DNA of 39,777 nt from Candidatus Parcubacteria bacterium (lineage in GTDB: Bacteria; Patescibacteriota; Minisyncoccia; Phycocordibacterales; JAACPR01): contig JAACPR010000006.1 of NCBI GenBank assembly GCA_009995365.1, forward strand, positions 1 to 39,777, written 5' to 3'. This document shows, one piece after another, positions 4,170-13,856 of this stretch. The first letter of the stretch is position 1. The number at the start of each line of letters is the position of its first letter. A program made the translations under genes and the position numbers. The notes under the pieces were generated by a model. The model searched no databases. It worked only from the letters and a program-made list of their open reading frames with translations, and was not told the origin of the DNA.

Positions 4170-4246
4170 ACACTAAAATAGTTTTAAAGAAAAGTTAAAA
4201 TCCGTCTAAAGACAAGTTTTGACAAGAGAGGTAGGTTTGTTAGTAT
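4170..4246. repeat. array repeat copy A (degenerate left half, intact + strand promoter)
   Basis: CACTAAAATAGTTTTAAAGAAAAGTTAAAATCCGTCTAAAGACAAGTTTTGACA...TGTTAGTAT aligns with copies B-E; TTGACA 4219-4224, TAGTAT 4241-4246. Confidence 0.85.
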
Positions 4247-4252
4247 GTAATC

Positions 4253-4305
4253 ATAAATGGCAATTGAGCCGACCGAGGAACCACCTAGAAATAGGTGGTT
4301 CCGTT
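4253..4305 (+). ncRNA. putative small RNA convergent on PemK/MazF gene 4306..4698
   Basis: Follows the promoter; GGC-AATTGA-GCC then GGAACCACCTA-GAAA-TAGGTGGTTCC (4277-4302) and a short U run. Transcription is inferred. Confidence 0.55.
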
Positions 4306-4698
4306 TTATTTAATCAAATCTATTACCCTCTCTTTAATTTGGTTAAAATCATTAAAATATAACTTACTAATAAATCTCCTCAATCTCTTAACACTCATTA
4401 ACTTAATTTGAGACAAAATAACAAAATTTTCAAGTCCGTTAATTTTTATCTTGTGATAGAATTTTTCGTCACCACTTTTGGAACTTATAGGTAGTGTTAA
4501 ACAAATTCTATTATTAAAATTCTTTAAAATTAAAACGGGTCTTTCATACCTATTTTTCTTGCCGTTTTCCTCATCACCTATATTTAACCCAACGGATGCC
4601 CACCAAACCTGTCTTTCTTTTATTTCCAAAAAATTGATTTTATTATCAATCTTTTTCTTCATCTTATTCCACTCATCAAAGTCTTTGCGCACCACCAT
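4306..4698 (-). CDS. PemK/MazF-family endoribonuclease (orphan toxin)
   Basis: 'QVWWASVGLNIGDEENGK...RPVLIL...LPISS...ILSQIKLMSVKRL' MazF motifs. True start may be the GTG at 4692. Confidence 0.9.
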   Translation of the reverse strand: MVVRKDFDEWNKMKKKIDNKINFLEIKERQVWWASVGLNIGDEENGKKNRYERPVLILKNFNNRICLTLPISSKSGDEKFYHKIKINGLENFVILSQIKLMSVKRLRRFISKLYFNDFNQIKERVIDLIK

Positions 4699-4788
4699 AC
4701 CCTATCAAACACACCTAAAATCCTGATAAAGAAAGGTTGAAATCCGTCTCAAGACAAGTTTTGACAAGAAAAATGAATTTGATAATAT
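4650..4788. repeat. array repeat copy B (first toxin codons, toxin promoter, divergent sRNA promoter)
   Basis: ...CTTATTCCACTCATCAAAGTCTTTGCGCACCACCA-ACCCTA-CAAA-CACCTAAAATCCTGATAAAGAAAG...TTTTGACA-16-TAATAT (4761-4788). Confidence 0.9.
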
Positions 4789-4794
4789 AGAAGA

Positions 4795-4835
4795 TACAAG
4801 TGCCGTAGGCCCGCCTTCGAAAGAAGGCTAAAAGA
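4795..4835 (+). ncRNA. putative small RNA convergent on PemK/MazF gene 4850..5242
   Basis: TACAAG, GCC-GTA-GGC, then GCCTTC-GAAA-GAAGGC (4813-4828). 3' end uncertain. Confidence 0.55.
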
Positions 4836-4849
4836 AATACAAAAAGCGA

Positions 4850-5242
4850 TTAAAACAAATCTTTAATCGCTTTTTTAATTTCTTGAAATAAATCCTCGGC
4901 TAATACACAAATTAGTTGAGATAATCTTTTAGTATCTACGACCTTCATTTGAGATATAATTGCTTTTGCCTGTTTACCGCCAATTAGCCCAACATCAAAT
5001 CTATATTTATGCTCTTGTTGTGAAGTGGTGAGTGGTATTGCAAAGAAAGTCATTAGACTCAACCCTTTAATAACTATAACGGGTCTTTTAAAATTAATAT
5101 AATCACCATGTTGCTCGTTACCTATATTCAGCCCTATATTACACCACCATACTTCCCCTTCATGATAAAAACGACCTTTTGATTTTCTATCAATCTTTTT
5201 CTTCATCTTATTCCACTCATCAAAATTTTTGCGCACCACCAA
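4850..5242 (-). CDS. PemK/MazF-family endoribonuclease (orphan toxin)
   Basis: 'GEVWWCNIGLNIGNEQHG...KRPVIVI...IPLTT...IISQMKVVDTKRL'. True start may be the GTG at 5236. Confidence 0.9.
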   Translation of the reverse strand: MVVRKNFDEWNKMKKKIDRKSKGRFYHEGEVWWCNIGLNIGNEQHGDYINFKRPVIVIKGLSLMTFFAIPLTTSQQEHKYRFDVGLIGGKQAKAIISQMKVVDTKRLSQLICVLAEDLFQEIKKAIKDLF

Positions 5243-5310
5243 ACCCTACCAAAACCACCTAAAATCCTGATAAAGAAAAGTTTTGACAAGAGAGGCAGGT
5301 TTGTTATCAT
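5190..5310. repeat. array repeat copy C (internal deletion of about 22 bp)
   Basis: Same repeat but lacking the AAATCCGTCTCAAGAC segment; TTGACA 5283-5288, 16 bp, TATCAT 5305-5310. Confidence 0.9.
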
Positions 5311-5316
5311 TATGAA

Positions 5317-5358
5317 TACAAACGGCTTCGGCAAGACCTTGCGAAAGCAAGGGTAACA
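5317..5358 (+). ncRNA. putative small RNA convergent on PemK/MazF gene 5371..5769
   Basis: TACAAA, GC-TTCG-GC, then CCTTGC-GAAA-GCAAGG (5337-5352). 3' end uncertain. Confidence 0.55.
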
Positions 5359-5370
5359 AATAGAAAAAAT

Positions 5371-5769
5371 TCAAGGGAGTAATTCCTTGAATTTTTTATT
5401 TAAATCTTCAAAATCTAACGATTCAATATAATCAATTTTATTTAATAACCTCTTTGAATCCAGTAACCGAATCTGAGAAAGTATCGCTGTGCTTTTTTGA
5501 TCATCAAATACCGATTGGAAGGTGTGATAAAATGGCAATGTTTTTATTGTTCTCGTTAGGGGAATAGCCCAAAATATGGATTTATTAAACTTTTTAAAAA
5601 TCAAAACTGGTCTTATAAAATTAGCCCCGACACCATCTTGTTCACTAGAGATATTCAACCCTAAATTACAATTCCAAATTTCTCTCTCATAAAAAATTGG
5701 TTTATTTTCAGATAAATTTATCTGCTTATTCATCTTATTCCACTCATCAAAGTCTTTGCGCACCACCAA
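5371..5769 (-). CDS. PemK/MazF-family endoribonuclease (orphan toxin)
   Basis: 'REIWNCNLGLNISSEQDG...RPVLIF...IPLT...ILSQIRLLDSKRL'. True start may be the GTG at 5763. Confidence 0.9.
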   Translation of the reverse strand: MVVRKDFDEWNKMNKQINLSENKPIFYEREIWNCNLGLNISSEQDGVGANFIRPVLIFKKFNKSIFWAIPLTRTIKTLPFYHTFQSVFDDQKSTAILSQIRLLDSKRLLNKIDYIESLDFEDLNKKFKELLP

Positions 5770-5859
5770 ACCCTAACAAACTCACCTAAAATCATTATAA
5801 AGAAAGATTAAAATCGAACTAAAAACCAATTTTGACATTAAAAATGAATTTGATACTAT
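5729..5859. repeat. array repeat copy D
   Basis: Same repeat; TTGACA 5832-5837, 16 bp, TACTAT 5854-5859. Confidence 0.9.
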
Positions 5860-5865
5860 AAAAAC

Positions 5866-5916
5866 ATCACGACGAAAAGGTTTTGTAGGGGTTCCGTCCC
5901 TTACAAAGCCTTTTTA
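5866..5916 (+). ncRNA. putative small RNA convergent on the NYN gene
   Basis: One long hairpin AAAAGGTTTTGTAGGGG-TTCCGT-CCCTTACAAAGCCTTTT (5875-5914) with two G-U pairs valid only on +, followed by a U tract. Confidence 0.55.
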
Positions 5917-5918
5917 TT

Positions 5919-6416
5919 TTATTTAAGCTCTAACTTGTTTCTTTTTCTATTTAAAAATTCAAAAATGTTTTTATCAGGGCGACTAAGCCTCTTCAGCAAA
6001 GCTGAATATTTCTTTTCATCTGGCACCAAAACAATCTCTAATTTATTTTCATTTAGCAAATATTCAACTAAACAATAAAAATCGCCATCACCAGAGACAA
6101 CGATTGCTTTATCAAAATTCTTATACTGTATCATTGTGTGCAAAATTAATTCTGCGTCAACATTTCCTTTTATTTTTCCACCTTTCAATTCAAGAGTTGG
6201 TTTAAAGATACAAATGTAGCCCATGTTTTGAAGTTTTGTATATAATGTTTCATTTCCAGGTATATAACCTATAAATATATAGGCTTTTGTAGTAGAATAT
6301 TTTTCTTTTAAATATTTATAAAATTTTTTAAAGTCCAATTCCCAACCGAGATCTCTAATCCCAAGATTTAAATTCTGACTGTCTATAAAAGCAAAGTTAT
6401 TAACTAATTTTTTCAT
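5919..6416 (-). CDS. NYN-domain (LabA/DUF88, PIN-like) ribonuclease
   Basis: 'AFIDSQNL', 'KGNVDAEL', 'VVSGDGDF' acidic catalytic motifs, 'YSALLK'. Confidence 0.92.
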   Translation of the reverse strand: MKKLVNNFAFIDSQNLNLGIRDLGWELDFKKFYKYLKEKYSTTKAYIFIGYIPGNETLYTKLQNMGYICIFKPTLELKGGKIKGNVDAELILHTMIQYKNFDKAIVVSGDGDFYCLVEYLLNENKLEIVLVPDEKKYSALLKRLSRPDKNIFEFLNRKRNKLELK

Positions 6417-6440
6417 CGATTAACATATTAATAAAATTTA

Positions 6441-6529
6441 TCCTACCAAAACCACCTAAAATCCTGATAAAAAAAGATTAAAATCCGGCTCAAGACGAAT
6501 TTTGACAAAAAAGCTGAGTTTGATATTAT
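6441..6529. repeat. array repeat copy E
   Basis: CCTACCAAAACCACCTAAAATCCTGATAAA...AAATCCGGCTCAAGAC...TTGACA 6502-6507, 16 bp, TATTAT 6524-6529. Confidence 0.9.
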
Positions 6530-6535
6530 GGAGGG

Positions 6536-6575
6536 TACAAATGCCTTCGGGCCCGCCCTCGAAAGAGGGAAAACA
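6536..6575 (+). ncRNA. putative small RNA convergent on PemK/MazF gene 6581..6973
   Basis: TACAAA, GCC-TTCG-GGC (6543-6552), CCCTC-GAAA-GAGGG (6556-6569). 3' end uncertain. Confidence 0.55.
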
Positions 6576-6580
6576 AAAAG

Positions 6581-6973
6581 CTACCAGAACATGTTTCTGA
6601 TAGTTTTTTTGATTAAATTAAAAGTTTCTTTATCTAGAATAGCTTCTCTTTTATAAAATCTTTTTGTGTCTATTAATTTAATTTGAGATATTATTACTTT
6701 CGCATTTTTACCTCCTATTTTACCTATTGATATATAATATTTATTATTCTTATTAGAAGTAGTTAAAGGAGCAACTATAGAAATATCTTTATTGAACCTC
6801 TTGATAACTAATACTGGTCTATCAAATTCCTTACCTGTTCCATCTTGTTCAAAACCAATATTAATCCCCAACTTACACCACCAAATTTCTCTTGCTTTAT
6901 AATACCGCCTATTGTTATAAGCATTAACATTCTTCTTAACCTTATTCCACTCATCAAAGTCTTTAAGCACCAC
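6581..6973 (-). CDS. PemK/MazF-family endoribonuclease (orphan toxin)
   Basis: 'REIWWCKLGINIGFEQDG...RPVLVI...APLTT...IISQIKLIDTKRF'. True start may be the GTG at 6970. Confidence 0.9.
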   Translation of the reverse strand: MVLKDFDEWNKVKKNVNAYNNRRYYKAREIWWCKLGINIGFEQDGTGKEFDRPVLVIKRFNKDISIVAPLTTSNKNNKYYISIGKIGGKNAKVIISQIKLIDTKRFYKREAILDKETFNLIKKTIRNMFW

Positions 6974-7010
6974 CAGACCCTAACAAAACCCCCTAAAATC
7001 CTGATAAATA
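6941..7010. repeat. array repeat copy F (toxin-side half only)
   Basis: CTTATTCCACTCATCAAAGTCTTT..GCACCACCA.ACCCTAACAAAACCCCCTAAAATCCTGATAAA; no TTGACA half follows. Confidence 0.85.
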
Positions 7011-7080
7011 AAATCTAAACCGAACAAAATATAAAACACAAAAACCCCGCCGTTTTACGAGCGGGATTTTTGAGGTAAAC

Positions 7081-7108
7081 AAAAAACCACTCTTGCGAGT
7101 GGTTTTTT
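7081..7108 (-). terminator. intrinsic terminator of the surface-protein gene
   Basis: AAAAAACCACTC-TTGC-GAGTGGTTTTTT perfect hairpin (GCAA loop on minus); a second imperfect hairpin at about 7040-7072. Confidence 0.85.
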
Positions 7109-7190
7109 GCTGAACTTTTAAGTTGTTCTAAACTTTTCGATTTTTGCTATCGAGAAACTCTCAATTACTTTCAGAAATTTTTAACTAAAA

Positions 7191-10880: not shown

Positions 10881-11022
10881 GGTTTTTAGTCTTTTATTAA
10901 CGTCTCAGTCTTATCACGCTTTAATTCATGATCAAATCTTGATTTCCGAGATAGTCGAGATAGTTAAAATAAAACTAAAATTTATTATTGACTTTAAAAT
11001 ACTATTGTATATACTTTGGTAT

Positions 11023-11298
11023 ATGTATACAATTTTAAATGTTAAAACAGATAAAAAACTAAAAGAAGAGGCTCGGAGAGTTGCTTCTGAAATAGGTGTT
11101 CCGCTAAGCACTGTTGTTAACTCTTTCCTAAAACAATTCGTAAGAGATCAAGAAGTTACTTTCTCTGCAAAAGAATATAAGATGACCCCTTATCTAGAAT
11201 CTTTGATTGAGGAAACTGAGCAAGACTACAAGAAAGGAAAACTTGAAGGTCCTTTTGACAATGCTGACGATTTCATTAAAAACCTAAACAAACAGTAA
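11023..11298 (+). CDS. RelB/DinJ-family antitoxin
   Basis: 'ILNVKTDKKLKEEARRVASEIGVPLSTVVNSFLKQFVR' RHH; start moved to ATG 11023, 7 nt after TTGACT-16-TATACT (10988-11015). Confidence 0.88.
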   Translation: MYTILNVKTDKKLKEEARRVASEIGVPLSTVVNSFLKQFVRDQEVTFSAKEYKMTPYLESLIEETEQDYKKGKLEGPFDNADDFIKNLNKQ

Positions 11299-11615: not shown

Positions 11616-13856
11616 ATGGGACGAAAAAAGAAGAACAAAAAAGAAGATTCTGAAAGCTTTTTAAATGCTTTCAAAAAAGAAACTCTTGAGGGTATTACCG
11701 CAATATTTTTTATTATAATTTCATTATTTTTGGTGCTGTCGCCTTTTGGTAAGGCAGGGATAGTTGGGACTGCAGTTCATAATTTTTTAGAATTAATTTT
11801 TGGACCGATTGGTTATTATTTGTTGCCAATTATTTTATTGATACTCGGAGCTTCATTTATAAAATCTCTTAGCCACAATTTGGCGTGGCCGAAAATTATA
11901 GGAGCTTCGCTGATGCTAATGACCGGACTTGGACTGATAGATATCGTAATAAAAGAAGGAGGAATGATCGGACACTACATCAATGTTCCCCTACTCTCTC
12001 TTTTTGGCACATGGATGACAGTCATCGGACACATCGGAGTTTTAATTATTTCAATTTTAGTCATTTTTGATCTTTCACTAAAATTCTCACACATCCAAGA
12101 CTTCATGAGCAAATACTTTTCTCGTGACAAAAAAGAAAGCGACGAGGAGGTTGAGCCGGAAATCAAGCAACCTGAAGATGAGTCGACCGAAGAAGCAGAA
12201 GAGAGTGATGAGGAAGAAGACGAGGAAATCGAAGTGGTCAGAAAAGACAAAAAAGAAGAAGAACCGAAAAAAACAAATGGACTTATTTTCTTTTCTCGAA
12301 AAAATGAAAGCTTCAAAGAATACACAGCTCCCCCACTCTCACTACTATCAAAAGATTCCGGAAAGCCAGGAGTCGGCGATATCAAAGCAAACACAAATAT
12401 CATCAAGAGGACTTTGGCGAATTTTGGAATCCAAGTCGAAATGGATGAAGTTTCAGTCGGACCATCGGTTACTCGTTACGCCTTGAAACCTGCCCAAGGG
12501 GTCAAGCTTTCAAAAATCGTCTCTCTGCAAAATGATCTGGCTCTGGCGCTAGCTGCCCACCCTCTTCGTATCGAGGCACCTATTCCTGGAAAGTCTCTTG
12601 TCGGGATTGAAATTCCAAACTCAAGCAAAACAACGGTCGGACTTGCCTCTATTTTCAAAAATACTGAATTCCAAAAAAGCGATAAGCCCTTGTTGCTCGG
12701 ACTTGGACGAGGAATTTCTGGAGATTCACTCTTTACAAACCTTGCCAAGGCTCCTCACATGCTGATTGCTGGTGCAACTGGTGCCGGAAAGTCTGTAACG
12801 ATTCACGCTATTATTACTTCTCTATTATATAGAAACTCCCCTGAGATGCTGAAGTTCATCATGATTGACCCAAAACGCGTTGAACTTACCATGTATAACA
12901 AAATCCCTCACTTATTAACGCCTGTTATTACTGATCCAAAGAAAACTATCCTTTCGCTAAAATGGGCCGGAAAAGAAATGAGTCGTCGTTATGACATTTT
13001 AGAAGAGCACGGTGTTCGCGATATCACCTCTTATCATGAAAATATTTTGGAGCCTGCCCTTAAAAAAGGTGGTGACCCTGAAGATATGCCCGAAAAAATG
13101 CCTTATATCGTCGTTATTATTGATGAGTTGGCTGATATTATGCAGACTTATCCTCGCGAATTAGAGTCTGGAATAGTTCGTTTGGCTCAAATGTCTCGTG
13201 CTGTTGGGATTCACTTGATTATTTCAACACAAAGACCTTCTGTTAATGTTATTACTGGTCTTATCAAAGCCAATATCCCATCTAGAATTGCCCTCCAAGT
13301 CGCCTCTCAGATTGACTCTAGGACAATTTTGGATATGCCGGGTGCTGAGAAACTGCTCGGCGCTGGAGATATGCTTTTCCTTTCTGGAGATATTTCACAA
13401 CCTCGCCGTATTCAATCAGCCTTTATTTCAGAGAATGAAGTGAAAAGTGTTGTAAGTTATCTGTATAAAAATTACGAATTCGATGGATTAAGCGATGCGA
13501 TTGATCTAGATGCAAAAGCCGAAGAATCAAATAGTGAGTCATTATTTAACGCAATAGAAGATGACGGCGAGGACGAAGACGATTTATACAGTGAAGCCAA
13601 AGCGGTCGTCATCCATGCAGGAAAAGCCTCTACTTCATACCTACAAAGAAAACTAAAAATTGGTTACTCTCGTGCGGCTAGAATTATGGATATTTTGGAA
13701 GAAAACGGTGTAATTGGACCAGCCGACGGATCAAAACCTCGTGAAATATTGACCGGAGGTGATGATGGTGATGGCGCTGATAGCGGCAACTCTTATGATG
13801 AAGCTTCTTCAGATTCAGACGAAGATAATTCAGAAGAAGAAAATGAGCAAATATAA
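11616..13856 (+). CDS. ftsK: DNA translocase FtsK
   Basis: 4 TM N-terminus, Walker A 'GATGAGKS', 'MIDPKRVEL', 'IIDELAD', 'TQRPS', gamma domain 'STSYLQRKLKIGYSRAARIMD'. Confidence 0.97.
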   Translation: MGRKKKNKKEDSESFLNAFKKETLEGITAIFFIIISLFLVLSPFGKAGIVGTAVHNFLELIFGPIGYYLLPIILLILGASFIKSLSHNLAWPKIIGASLMLMTGLGLIDIVIKEGGMIGHYINVPLLSLFGTWMTVIGHIGVLIISILVIFDLSLKFSHIQDFMSKYFSRDKKESDEEVEPEIKQPEDESTEEAEESDEEEDEEIEVVRKDKKEEEPKKTNGLIFFSRKNESFKEYTAPPLSLLSKDSGKPGVGDIKANTNIIKRTLANFGIQVEMDEVSVGPSVTRYALKPAQGVKLSKIVSLQNDLALALAAHPLRIEAPIPGKSLVGIEIPNSSKTTVGLASIFKNTEFQKSDKPLLLGLGRGISGDSLFTNLAKAPHMLIAGATGAGKSVTIHAIITSLLYRNSPEMLKFIMIDPKRVELTMYNKIPHLLTPVITDPKKTILSLKWAGKEMSRRYDILEEHGVRDITSYHENILEPALKKGGDPEDMPEKMPYIVVIIDELADIMQTYPRELESGIVRLAQMSRAVGIHLIISTQRPSVNVITGLIKANIPSRIALQVASQIDSRTILDMPGAEKLLGAGDMLFLSGDISQPRRIQSAFISENEVKSVVSYLYKNYEFDGLSDAIDLDAKAEESNSESLFNAIEDDGEDEDDLYSEAKAVVIHAGKASTSYLQRKLKIGYSRAARIMDILEENGVIGPADGSKPREILTGGDDGDGADSGNSYDEASSDSDEDNSEEENEQI

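Follow-up and report, generated by a model that had tools for sequence, protein, structure and literature searches.

How are ribonucleases of a toxin family kept in check where no protein antitoxin is encoded beside them? The question is raised by a contig of Candidatus Parcubacteria bacterium (assembly GCA_009995365.1, contig JAACPR010000006.1, here C17), a member of the Patescibacteriota with a genome of 758 kb in 24 contigs and 34% G+C. The contig was analyzed over its whole length of 39,777 nucleotides (nt) and is called the window below. At positions 4170–7010 of the window five ribonuclease genes stand head to tail on the minus strand. It is strongly supported by the comparisons given here that a convergently encoded, structured RNA accompanies each nuclease. 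That this small RNA (sRNA) serves as an RNA antitoxin, most likely as a protein-binding decoy similar to those of type III toxin–antitoxin (TA) systems, we consider a serious possibility, though we stop short of calling it probable. A preliminary description of the locus had proposed a nuclease with a convergent RNA antitoxin in each cassette; the pairing proved to be conserved, with strong comparative support, while the antitoxin role is still something that we infer.

The composition first given for the array, a minus-strand tandem of four PemK/MazF genes with one NYN gene, was confirmed by the list of open reading frames (ORFs) and by Pfam matches. The encoded nucleases are soluble proteins of 130–165 amino acids (aa). 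The gaps between the genes, 151, 128, 149 and 164 nt, come close to the range of 130–165 bp reported initially, the measured range being 128–164 nt. An ORF scan bore out the claim that they leave no room for MazE or PemI: no gene for such an antitoxin lies adjacent to the toxin genes and the gaps hold no conserved ORF. At homologous loci a same-strand ORF of at least 40 aa abuts the toxin gene in 17 cases out of 25, and these ORFs are either large unrelated genes or short odd frames; inspection by eye of the 25 loci revealed no recurrent abutting protein antitoxin. Only one MazE domain of the genome exceeds the cut-off, and its partner is a canonical MazF (G000:C19:104878-105536, locus L001). 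The AbrB-type antitoxin gene lies directly upstream, and this MazF does not have the DFDEWN N-terminal helix described below for the array toxins. The pair shows that the organism apparently also uses the ordinary type II form.

Each nuclease gene of the array is faced at its 3′ end by a promoter on the plus strand. The promoter scan recovered all five sites that had been noticed by inspection (4219, 4761, 5283, 5832 and 6502); every one has TTGACA, a 16-nt spacer and TGnTAnnAT, with 10–11 of 12 hexamer positions matched, and together they make up five of the six top-scoring rows. The lenient scan as a whole showed no enrichment (14 sites versus 14.5 ± 3.8 in shuffled sequences). With the strict pattern, TTGACA-N13-15-TGnTAnnnT, we found 23 sites on both strands of the 758-kb genome; five are those of the array, and one more is directed at the 3′ end of the one NYN gene encoded elsewhere in the genome, on contig C7. 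The five array promoters and their RNAs are paralogous repeats, hence not independent events. As the same strict pattern also occurs upstream of the genes for S19/L22, S14, EF-Tu and NusG, the sRNA promoters appear to belong to the consensus class of genes expected to be highly expressed. At four such sites (C6:15683, C6:19431, C6:10398 and C13:8154), situated before ribosomal-protein, EF-Tu and NusG genes, the promoter is immediately followed by a short GC hairpin with a U-tract, a possible leader or attenuator element.

The predicted RNAs, measured from the presumed start to the U-tract, have ∼58–88 nt, which corrects the 40–55 nt of the preliminary description. All five fold better than any of 200 shuffled sequences, with z-scores of −5.44, −6.63, −5.88, −7.14 and −3.78 for sRNA-0 to sRNA-4. 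There are 12 terminator-like sites against 1.8 ± 1.4 expected, and for three of the cassettes the prediction gives a terminator on each strand. The RNAs had been said to end next to the stop codon. Three of them, however (facing the genes at 4850, 5371 and 6581), reach ∼30 nt into the ORF, since it is the final codons of the gene that supply the terminator stem. In sRNA-1 the leader is UACAAG; stems P1 and P2, the latter with a GAAA loop, come next, and after an A-rich linker the RNA closes with a bidirectional terminator extending over the end of toxin 2 (predicted on either strand at 4841–4875). The leader of sRNA-4 is UACAAAUG; here P1 has a UUCG loop and P2 a GAAA loop, and the terminator again extends over the end of the toxin gene, in this case that of toxin 5. 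The RNA facing the NYN gene, sRNA-3, begins with AUCACGACGAAAAG and continues into an 18-bp hairpin with a GUUCCGU loop, which is the terminator. We also considered a peptide antitoxin encoded inside the RNA and rejected it: the AUG in UACAAAUG is variable (GUG, ACG), and the frame, as judged by eye, stops after two codons in sRNA-1.

The preliminary description had called for a search for a conserved promoter and hairpin downstream of homologues, and both are present. Among 61 related genomes a PemK-like protein was matched in 28, with up to seven copies per genome (genomes of 0.5–1 Mb); the number varies from 0 to 7 among close relatives. A strict convergent promoter was found for 19 of 31 fetched copies, 57–120 nt past the stop codon (L032, at 8 nt, is an exception with an unreliable stop). 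The RNA is the same in nearly all fetched copies. Its UACAAAUG leader is followed by P1 (3 bp, UUCG loop), by P2 and by an A-rich linker; in the closing terminator the 3′ arm is complementary to the last codons of the toxin gene. With a relaxed pattern (TTGAC[AT]-N16-19-TAnnnT, at most 200 nt past the stop), a convergent promoter was present in 41 of the 49 PemK-like copies with enough flank, compared with three of 49 on the same strand and a mean of 0.45 in shuffled sequences; the convergent −10 element ends at a median of 57 nt from the toxin stop codon.

A covariance model of the PemK-linked RNA, R1, was built from 12 RNAs. It matches three RNAs of the array (E 9e-19, 6e-18 and 5e-7), and in the related genomes 33 of its 43 matches with E ≤ 1e-6 are convergent on a PemK match. 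As an independent set we took loci chosen by protein only: a scan of one genome per species found 304 relatives, from which the 80 best loci were kept, mostly with Patescibacteria or Candidate Phyla Radiation (CPR) labels. In 74 of these 80 loci R1 matched the strand opposite to the toxin gene, at its 3′ end, and 64 of the matches have E < 1e-9; among the six loci without a match, one is without any flank.

The structure is supported by covariation. In an alignment of 41 R1 matches 92.2% of the cells are paired and 21 of 22 base pairs show compensatory changes; none of 500 shuffles did as well and slid controls reached at most 57%. The loop of P1 is UUCG in 27 of the 41 RNAs, and that of P2 is GCAA in nine and GAAA in five. 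Loops of these kinds indicate that the structure belongs to the RNA strand and not to the strand of the toxin mRNA. UACA is present in the leader of 27 of the 41 RNAs, and ACA in 34.

NYN homologues, found in 27 of the 61 related genomes, have an RNA of their own. Their 3′ flanks encode an RNA distinct from R1, in which AUCACGACGAAAAG leads into a long hairpin; this hairpin has a GGUUCCGUCC loop and doubles as terminator. The model of this NYN-linked RNA, R2, built from 11 sequences, has matches in 26 of the 61 genomes. When matches with E ≤ 1e-5 were paired by hand with the genes, 22 of 31 were convergent on the 3′ end of a NYN gene and three more were extra tandem copies next to one so paired. 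Across 24 aligned matches pairing extends to 86.5% of the cells, and compensatory changes affect 14 of the 18 pairs. G-U pairs are common (13 of 24 sequences at the outermost pair, for example), and this favors the RNA strand as the one that carries the structure. The RNA family thus follows the nuclease family, R1 going with PemK and R2 with NYN. The second NYN gene of the genome (G000:C7:12098-12592, plus strand; locus L037) has its own consensus promoter upstream and is faced by a TTGACA/TGnTAnnAT promoter at 12701–12674 and by a third form of RNA with a CCGAACGGCUAAAUACCUAAGG core; this form, which R2 does not match, occurs also in L068, L083 and L087. At another locus, G009:C4:20247-20556, three NYN-type RNAs stand in tandem before a single NYN gene.

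Conservation of this kind bears on another account of the array, in which the strong convergent promoters and bidirectional terminators would do no more than damp or insulate the expression of non-toxic housekeeping RNases, and the junctions would be scars of recombination or duplication. The array does lie in a chromosomal housekeeping setting, flanked by genes for surface proteins, FtsK, RecA and EF-P; in the 10 flanking ORFs scanned there are no recombinase or mobile-element genes. The junctions are indeed mosaic: in the four PemK-type genes the first 51 nt are 74–94% identical, versus 55–63% for the remainder, a pattern that fits recombination or gene conversion between cassettes. Insulation, however, does not call for an RNA domain that is conserved and covarying, is specific to its family and has UUCG and GNRA loops, and the pairing is seen as well at single-copy genes in many genomes, the gene–RNA unit occurring singly in most genomes. 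The MazF catalytic residues are retained, and a copy number that ranges from 0 to 7 in close relatives is what one expects of accessory toxin genes. We therefore regard this account as unlikely. With respect to an integron-like cassette array, no recombinase was found in the 10 flanking ORFs, no dedicated attC model having been run.

The junctions themselves are informative about the expression of the toxins. By alignment the spacers of the array are copies of one unit, and on the minus strand the sequence TTATCA, resembling a −35 element, and the extended −10 TGnTAGGGT precede every toxin gene at its junction (Table 1). A junction is thus likely to be a pair of back-to-back promoters, a weak one for the toxin gene on the left and a consensus one for the RNA facing the toxin gene on the right. 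For the PemK genes the end of the −10 element lies 6 nt ahead of the ORF's second GTG, and because of this distance the mRNAs of the PemK-type toxins are probably leaderless, starting in the array with GTG. Among homologues, TAnnnT ends 4–9 nt before the start codon in 20 of 30 (four genes of the window being scored as misses solely because their start was set two codons early), and a Shine–Dalgarno-like core was seen in one of 30. Among the sequencing runs listed for the region none is an RNA run. Contigs from four DNA runs (X15, X16, X21 and X22) show the same array order; they break at the repeated junctions and contain no joints.

Table 1. Coordinates in the window of the nuclease genes and of the predicted small RNAs and promoters
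Feature	Position	Strand	Remarks
Promoter of sRNA-0	4219–4246	+	TTGACA, 16-nt spacer, TGT-TAGTAT; 10/12 matches
sRNA-0, ‘CCGAG’ class	4253–4312	+	∼58 nt; faces toxin 1; short P1 and long GAAA-looped terminator hairpin (4277–4302)
Toxin 1, PemK/MazF family	4306–4698	−	PemK_toxin PF02452, E 1.2e-9; probable start GTG 4692
Predicted promoter, toxin 1	4699–4729	−	TTATCA −35-like and extended −10 TGATAGGGT, 6 nt before GTG
Promoter of sRNA-1	4761–4788	+	10/12 matches, TG present
sRNA-1, R1 family	4795–4882	+	R1 match 4793–4886, E 5.9e-18
Toxin 2, PemK/MazF family	4850–5242	−	PF02452, E 3.8e-13; probable start GTG 5236
Predicted promoter, toxin 2	5243–5273	−	Extended −10 TGGTAGGGT
Promoter of sRNA-2	5283–5310	+	11/12 matches, TG present
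sRNA-2, R1 family	5317–5403	+	Faces toxin 3; R1 match 5315–5410, E 4.9e-7
Toxin 3, PemK/MazF family	5371–5769	−	PF02452, E 7.6e-9; probable start GTG 5763
Predicted promoter, toxin 3	5770–5800	−	Extended −10 TGTTAGGGT
Promoter of sRNA-3	5832–5859	+	10/12 matches, TG present
sRNA-3, NYN-linked family R2	5866–5925	+	R2 match 5865–5925, E 5e-15
NYN-domain nuclease gene	5919–6416	−	NYN PF01936, E 2.9e-14
Predicted promoter, NYN gene	6440–6470	−	Extended −10 TGGTAGGAT, then ∼20-nt leader
Promoter of sRNA-4	6502–6529	+	11/12 matches, TG present
sRNA-4, R1 family	6536–6612	+	R1 match 6534–6620, E 9.1e-19
Toxin 5, PemK/MazF family	6581–6973	−	PF02452, E 3.6e-14; probable start GTG 6970
Predicted promoter, toxin 5	6977–7007	−	Extended −10 TGTTAGGGT; right-hand end of the repeated junction

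Are the nucleases themselves equipped to act as toxins? In 30 aligned PemK-like sequences W9, G36, N38, E42, G45, R52, P53, Q97 and R105 are invariant, and K4, F6, N10, K13 and T71 nearly so. Compared as a profile with B. subtilis MazF/EndoA (4mdx), the family aligns from profile position 23 with an E-value of 1.6e-10; R52 falls on the arginine of VRP and T71 on the threonine of AAIT, which we take to be the MazF catalytic residues R25 and T48. The active site residues thus appear to be retained. The predicted structure has the MazF fold (predicted local distance difference test score, pLDDT, 82), with B. anthracis MoxT and B. subtilis MazF as best Foldseek matches (template modeling score, TM, 0.68–0.76). 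Neither ToxN nor AbiQ was matched; PemK_toxin was the only Pfam family found for the toxins at E ≤ 0.1.

The first 22 residues have no counterpart in solved MazF structures. They contain an extra predicted helix (residues 5–18, pLDDT ∼60), and the extension is limited to the RNA-linked subfamily, profile matches in the PDB beginning at position 23–24. It is conceivable that the nucleases restrain themselves by means of this helix (K4, F6, W9, N10, K13) and that the RNA is a cofactor, guide, activator or substrate. The subfamily-specific extension, the predicted helix and the DFDEW motif, which recalls the acidic–aromatic EFDWGEP tail of the canonical MazE at C19, would agree with such self-restraint. 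Still, the likeness of the two motifs is one of five residues only, the NYN nucleases have the same RNA arrangement and no such helix, and the persistence of RNA-only orphans would be left unexplained. For these reasons we think self-restraint very unlikely.

Not every copy is accompanied by R1 or R2. Further classes of RNA include the CCGAG class, a GGGGUAACCC class and a second NYN-linked class. The first RNA of the array, sRNA-0, belongs to the CCGAG class: it has no match to R1 and is alignable to seven homologous RNAs in which CCGAG is invariant. Twenty loci with divergent PemK copies were fetched, of which 19 could be evaluated. By script, 10 have a strict promoter and six an extended −10 only; for the remaining nine divergent loci examination by eye showed in most cases TTGACT with a TATAAT-like box 17–19 nt further on, L122 being ambiguous. 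All evaluable divergent copies carry hairpins, in a few variant forms. Judged partly by eye, no evaluable toxin copy was without a convergent promoter and hairpin.

The reverse, an RNA without its toxin gene, does occur. RNA-only units with intact promoters were found in L048, L051, L098, L099, L097 (twice), L100 and L010. The RNA of L048 sits beside a 36-aa stump of a toxin; other orphan RNAs face pheS or genes of unknown function, or stand in tandem. L097 (G010:C1:15500-18863) is a mixed NYN–PemK–NYN array with two identical RNA-only units of the R1 type, each upstream of the RNA of a NYN cassette. In L101 an R1-like RNA (1099–1211, E 3e-7) faces a 147-aa protein (659–1102) without a Pfam family, which may be a further type of toxin partnered with an R1-like RNA. 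Outside the Patescibacteria, on a plasmid of Nitratiruptor (Campylobacterota; NZ_AP023062.1, L205, 1570–1650), a 34%-identical PemK homologue has the N-terminal motif; on the convergent strand there are an extended −10 and two hairpins, where the best R1 match of the locus falls (weak, E 0.15), and on the toxin strand a small CopG-like ORF follows the PemK homologue.

An RNA so placed could control the nuclease mRNA in cis, by antisense pairing with its 3′ end, in the manner of type I systems. Pairing would be made through the shared terminator hairpin and the A-rich/U-tract part, probably starting from a loop–loop contact, and would lead to mRNA decay or to transcription interference, with P1 and P2 merely stabilizing the RNA or recruiting an RNase. 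Much of the geometry agrees with this: in intact pairs the toxin stop codon lies inside the RNA, at position 47–61 of ∼90; terminators are predicted in both directions for three cassettes; the NYN-linked RNA is almost wholly made of the hairpin common to the mRNA end, with a conserved loop; the position of the RNA is constant across both nuclease families; and convergent genes sharing a terminator are the layout of Gram-positive type I families, as described in the relevant parts of PMC8594479. The overlap is complementary by construction. On the other hand, the best-conserved part of R1 (UACAAAUG, P1 and P2) lies outside the overlap, and for 20 cognate pairs we found no base-pairing of the sRNA 5′ domain with the 5′ end of the toxin mRNA (mean z −0.11). 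Since this domain is neither in the overlap nor paired with the mRNA 5′ end, antisense action is not sufficient to explain its conservation. In addition, leaderless toxin mRNAs would have no ribosome-binding site to mask, orphan RNAs with intact promoters persist without a target in cis, and known type I toxins are small membrane peptides. We find antisense control in cis somewhat doubtful, but as an explanation it comes close behind protein binding.

The role of the RNA as an antitoxin is consistent with the absence of a recurrent protein partner, with the far stronger promoters of the RNAs and with the occurrence of orphan RNAs but not of RNA-less toxins; with the apparently intact MazF catalytic residues and the family-specific RNAs added, it would account for most of the facts. 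Besides the conserved 5′ domain outside the overlap, two observations argue for direct binding to the protein. Orphan RNAs would be pointless unless they act in trans. Also, the nearest characterized relatives of the toxins cut UACAU or UACA, B. subtilis MazF cutting UACAU (PMC7781912), and UACA occurs in the leader of most of the aligned R1 RNAs.

In the mechanism that we infer, from transcription of the RNA and toxicity of the nuclease to the binding of one by the other, the nuclease would be made at a low level from its weak promoter, for the PemK genes via a leaderless mRNA. The small structured RNA would be made in excess from the consensus promoter on the opposite strand and would end in the terminator common to it and the nuclease gene. 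The 5′ domain of the PemK-linked RNA (UACAAAUG leader, P1 with UUCG, P2 with GNRA) would act as a decoy or pseudo-substrate by filling the groove in which the MazF dimer binds RNA, and the N-terminal helix of the subfamily may contribute to its retention there. The NYN nucleases would be bound by the RNA family that goes with them. Were synthesis of the RNA to stop, the nuclease would be freed.

Several points weigh against a protein-binding antitoxin RNA. The UACA link rests on relatives that are ∼23% identical, and 14 of the 41 RNAs do not have UACA. The strictly convergent, terminator-sharing position is required for antisense action in cis but not for binding to a protein. The array has no tandem RNA repeats like those of ToxI, and the toxins are MazF proper and not ToxN. 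The alignments used for covariation were fitted to the models and are therefore biased toward the structure, and two of the R1 rows are images of opposite-strand terminators. R1-type RNA was found at 42 of 87 PemK matches (62 rows matched), the other RNAs being variants classed by eye; the rows that were typed comprise all 43 with E ≤ 1e-6 plus a selection of weaker ones. Finally, the R1-type RNA-only units of L097 adjoin NYN cassettes, so that the class of an RNA and its neighbor can mismatch.

The suggestion that the array forms a stacked anti-phage arsenal found no support: PADLOC matched none of the four PemK proteins and matched the NYN protein weakly. Between the array and the next gene (window 7033–7170) there are two stacked bidirectional terminators, which in Rfam gave RNAI, Thr-leader and rimP-leader look-alikes, all weak and below the gathering score. 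Farther along (window 10939–11298, plus strand) a 119-aa ORF has weak matches to the RelB antitoxin (E 7e-5) and to DUF6364 (E 6e-6). In L027 (2718–2773, minus strand), ∼1.4 kb from a PemK module, we saw a match resembling a type III hammerhead ribozyme (35.4 bits against a gathering score of 48.5, E 6.5e-4).

How does the unit compare with known systems? The arrangement had been described as one not recognized among TA types; this is not so, since Gram-positive type I systems ordinarily have just such an RNA, convergent with the toxin gene and partly overlapping its 3′ end. According to the sections of PMC8594479 on these systems, in Fst/RNAII, TxpA/RatA, BsrG/SR4 and SprA1/SprA1as a convergent RNA partly overlaps the toxin 3′ end, and in two of the families the functional contact lies outside the overlap. 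The array has in common with them the RNA with its own promoter on the 3′ side and an overlap at the terminator used by both genes, into which the end of the ORF often falls; at the sequence level promoters, terminators and a stop codon within the RNA are all as in that layout. It differs in its toxins, ribonucleases of 130–165 aa as opposed to hydrophobic peptides of less than ∼60 aa, and in the non-overlapping RNA domain, which has no complementarity to the 5′ end of toxin mRNAs that themselves look leaderless.

With type III systems (ToxIN, AbiQ/antiQ) the array shares an endoribonuclease of the MazF/Kid type without a protein antitoxin and with a predicted structured RNA partner. As stated in the passages of PMC7781912 on type III, the toxin recognizes and cuts its own antitoxin RNA; the UACA leader of the array RNA would be a parallel. 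In contrast to the 2.8–5.5 tandem repeats upstream and on the same strand in type III, each RNA of the array is single-copy and, under a consensus promoter of its own, convergent with the toxin gene at the 3′ end, and the toxins match PemK_toxin and solved MazF structures, not ToxN or AbiQ. From type II MazEF (B. subtilis EndoA/MazF; 4mdx, 4me7) the array has the toxin fold and the catalytic motif, and it departs from it in having no adjacent MazE or PemI, an extra N-terminal helix and an extended −10 promoter of its own by the start codon.

Small RNAs, not proteins, control a nuclease toxin in SymE/SymR and RalR/RalA as well; the placement of the RNA in these two differs from the array layout, and neither SymE nor RalR is of the MazF family or a NYN nuclease. 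MazF is a textbook type II toxin, and we know of no NYN nuclease established as the toxin of a TA system. SymE is treated as a type I endoribonuclease toxin in the corresponding part of PMC7781912.

The Rfam pemK motif (RF02913) is likewise a structured RNA named for its association with pemK. A comparison of the RNAs with Rfam including this motif, proposed at the outset, gave no match, with no positive control for RF02913: its covariance model found nothing at the array (best hit in the genome E 3.5, elsewhere), nothing in 20 homologue loci (E ≤ 1) and nothing in the 61 relatives, the control genomes being also without a match. The main text of PMC5737381 does not mention the pemK motif, which may be described in the supplements. 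No family of Rfam 15 reached its gathering score in the array or in the 20 homologue loci; the weak rows there were rejected as terminator look-alikes. In the literature searched on RNA antitoxins of PemK/MazF, on Patescibacteria/CPR, on NYN and on orphan MazF we found neither a description of the arrangement nor any RNA antitoxin of MazF.

The unit lacks something that defines each type: the protein antitoxin of type II, ToxN and the upstream repeats of type III, and the small peptide of type I. What seems to be new is the presence of MazF-family and NYN toxins in RNA-controlled modules, together with at least two RNA families; the layout itself is known. The recurrence of the gene–RNA pairing across many bacteria with tiny genomes suggests that an RNA-antitoxin system is widespread and has so far gone undescribed. 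A bolder generalization, which we offer with some doubt, would be a TA class common in the Patescibacteria, in which MazF and NYN RNases are checked by single-copy decoy RNAs that show the motif of the toxin beside UUCG/GNRA hairpins. Such a class would be a third route, distinct from types I and III, and its cassettes would recombine into diversifying mixed arrays.

The layout offers a clean separation of antisense from protein-binding modes of action, because the conserved and the overlapping domains of the RNA are physically separate. If the antitoxin role is true, many annotations of ‘type II PemK/MazF family toxin’ in bacteria with tiny genomes would be mislabelled, two or more RNA families would be missing from Rfam, and a consensus promoter facing the 3′ end of an orphan nuclease gene would be a signature for finding more RNA-controlled toxins.

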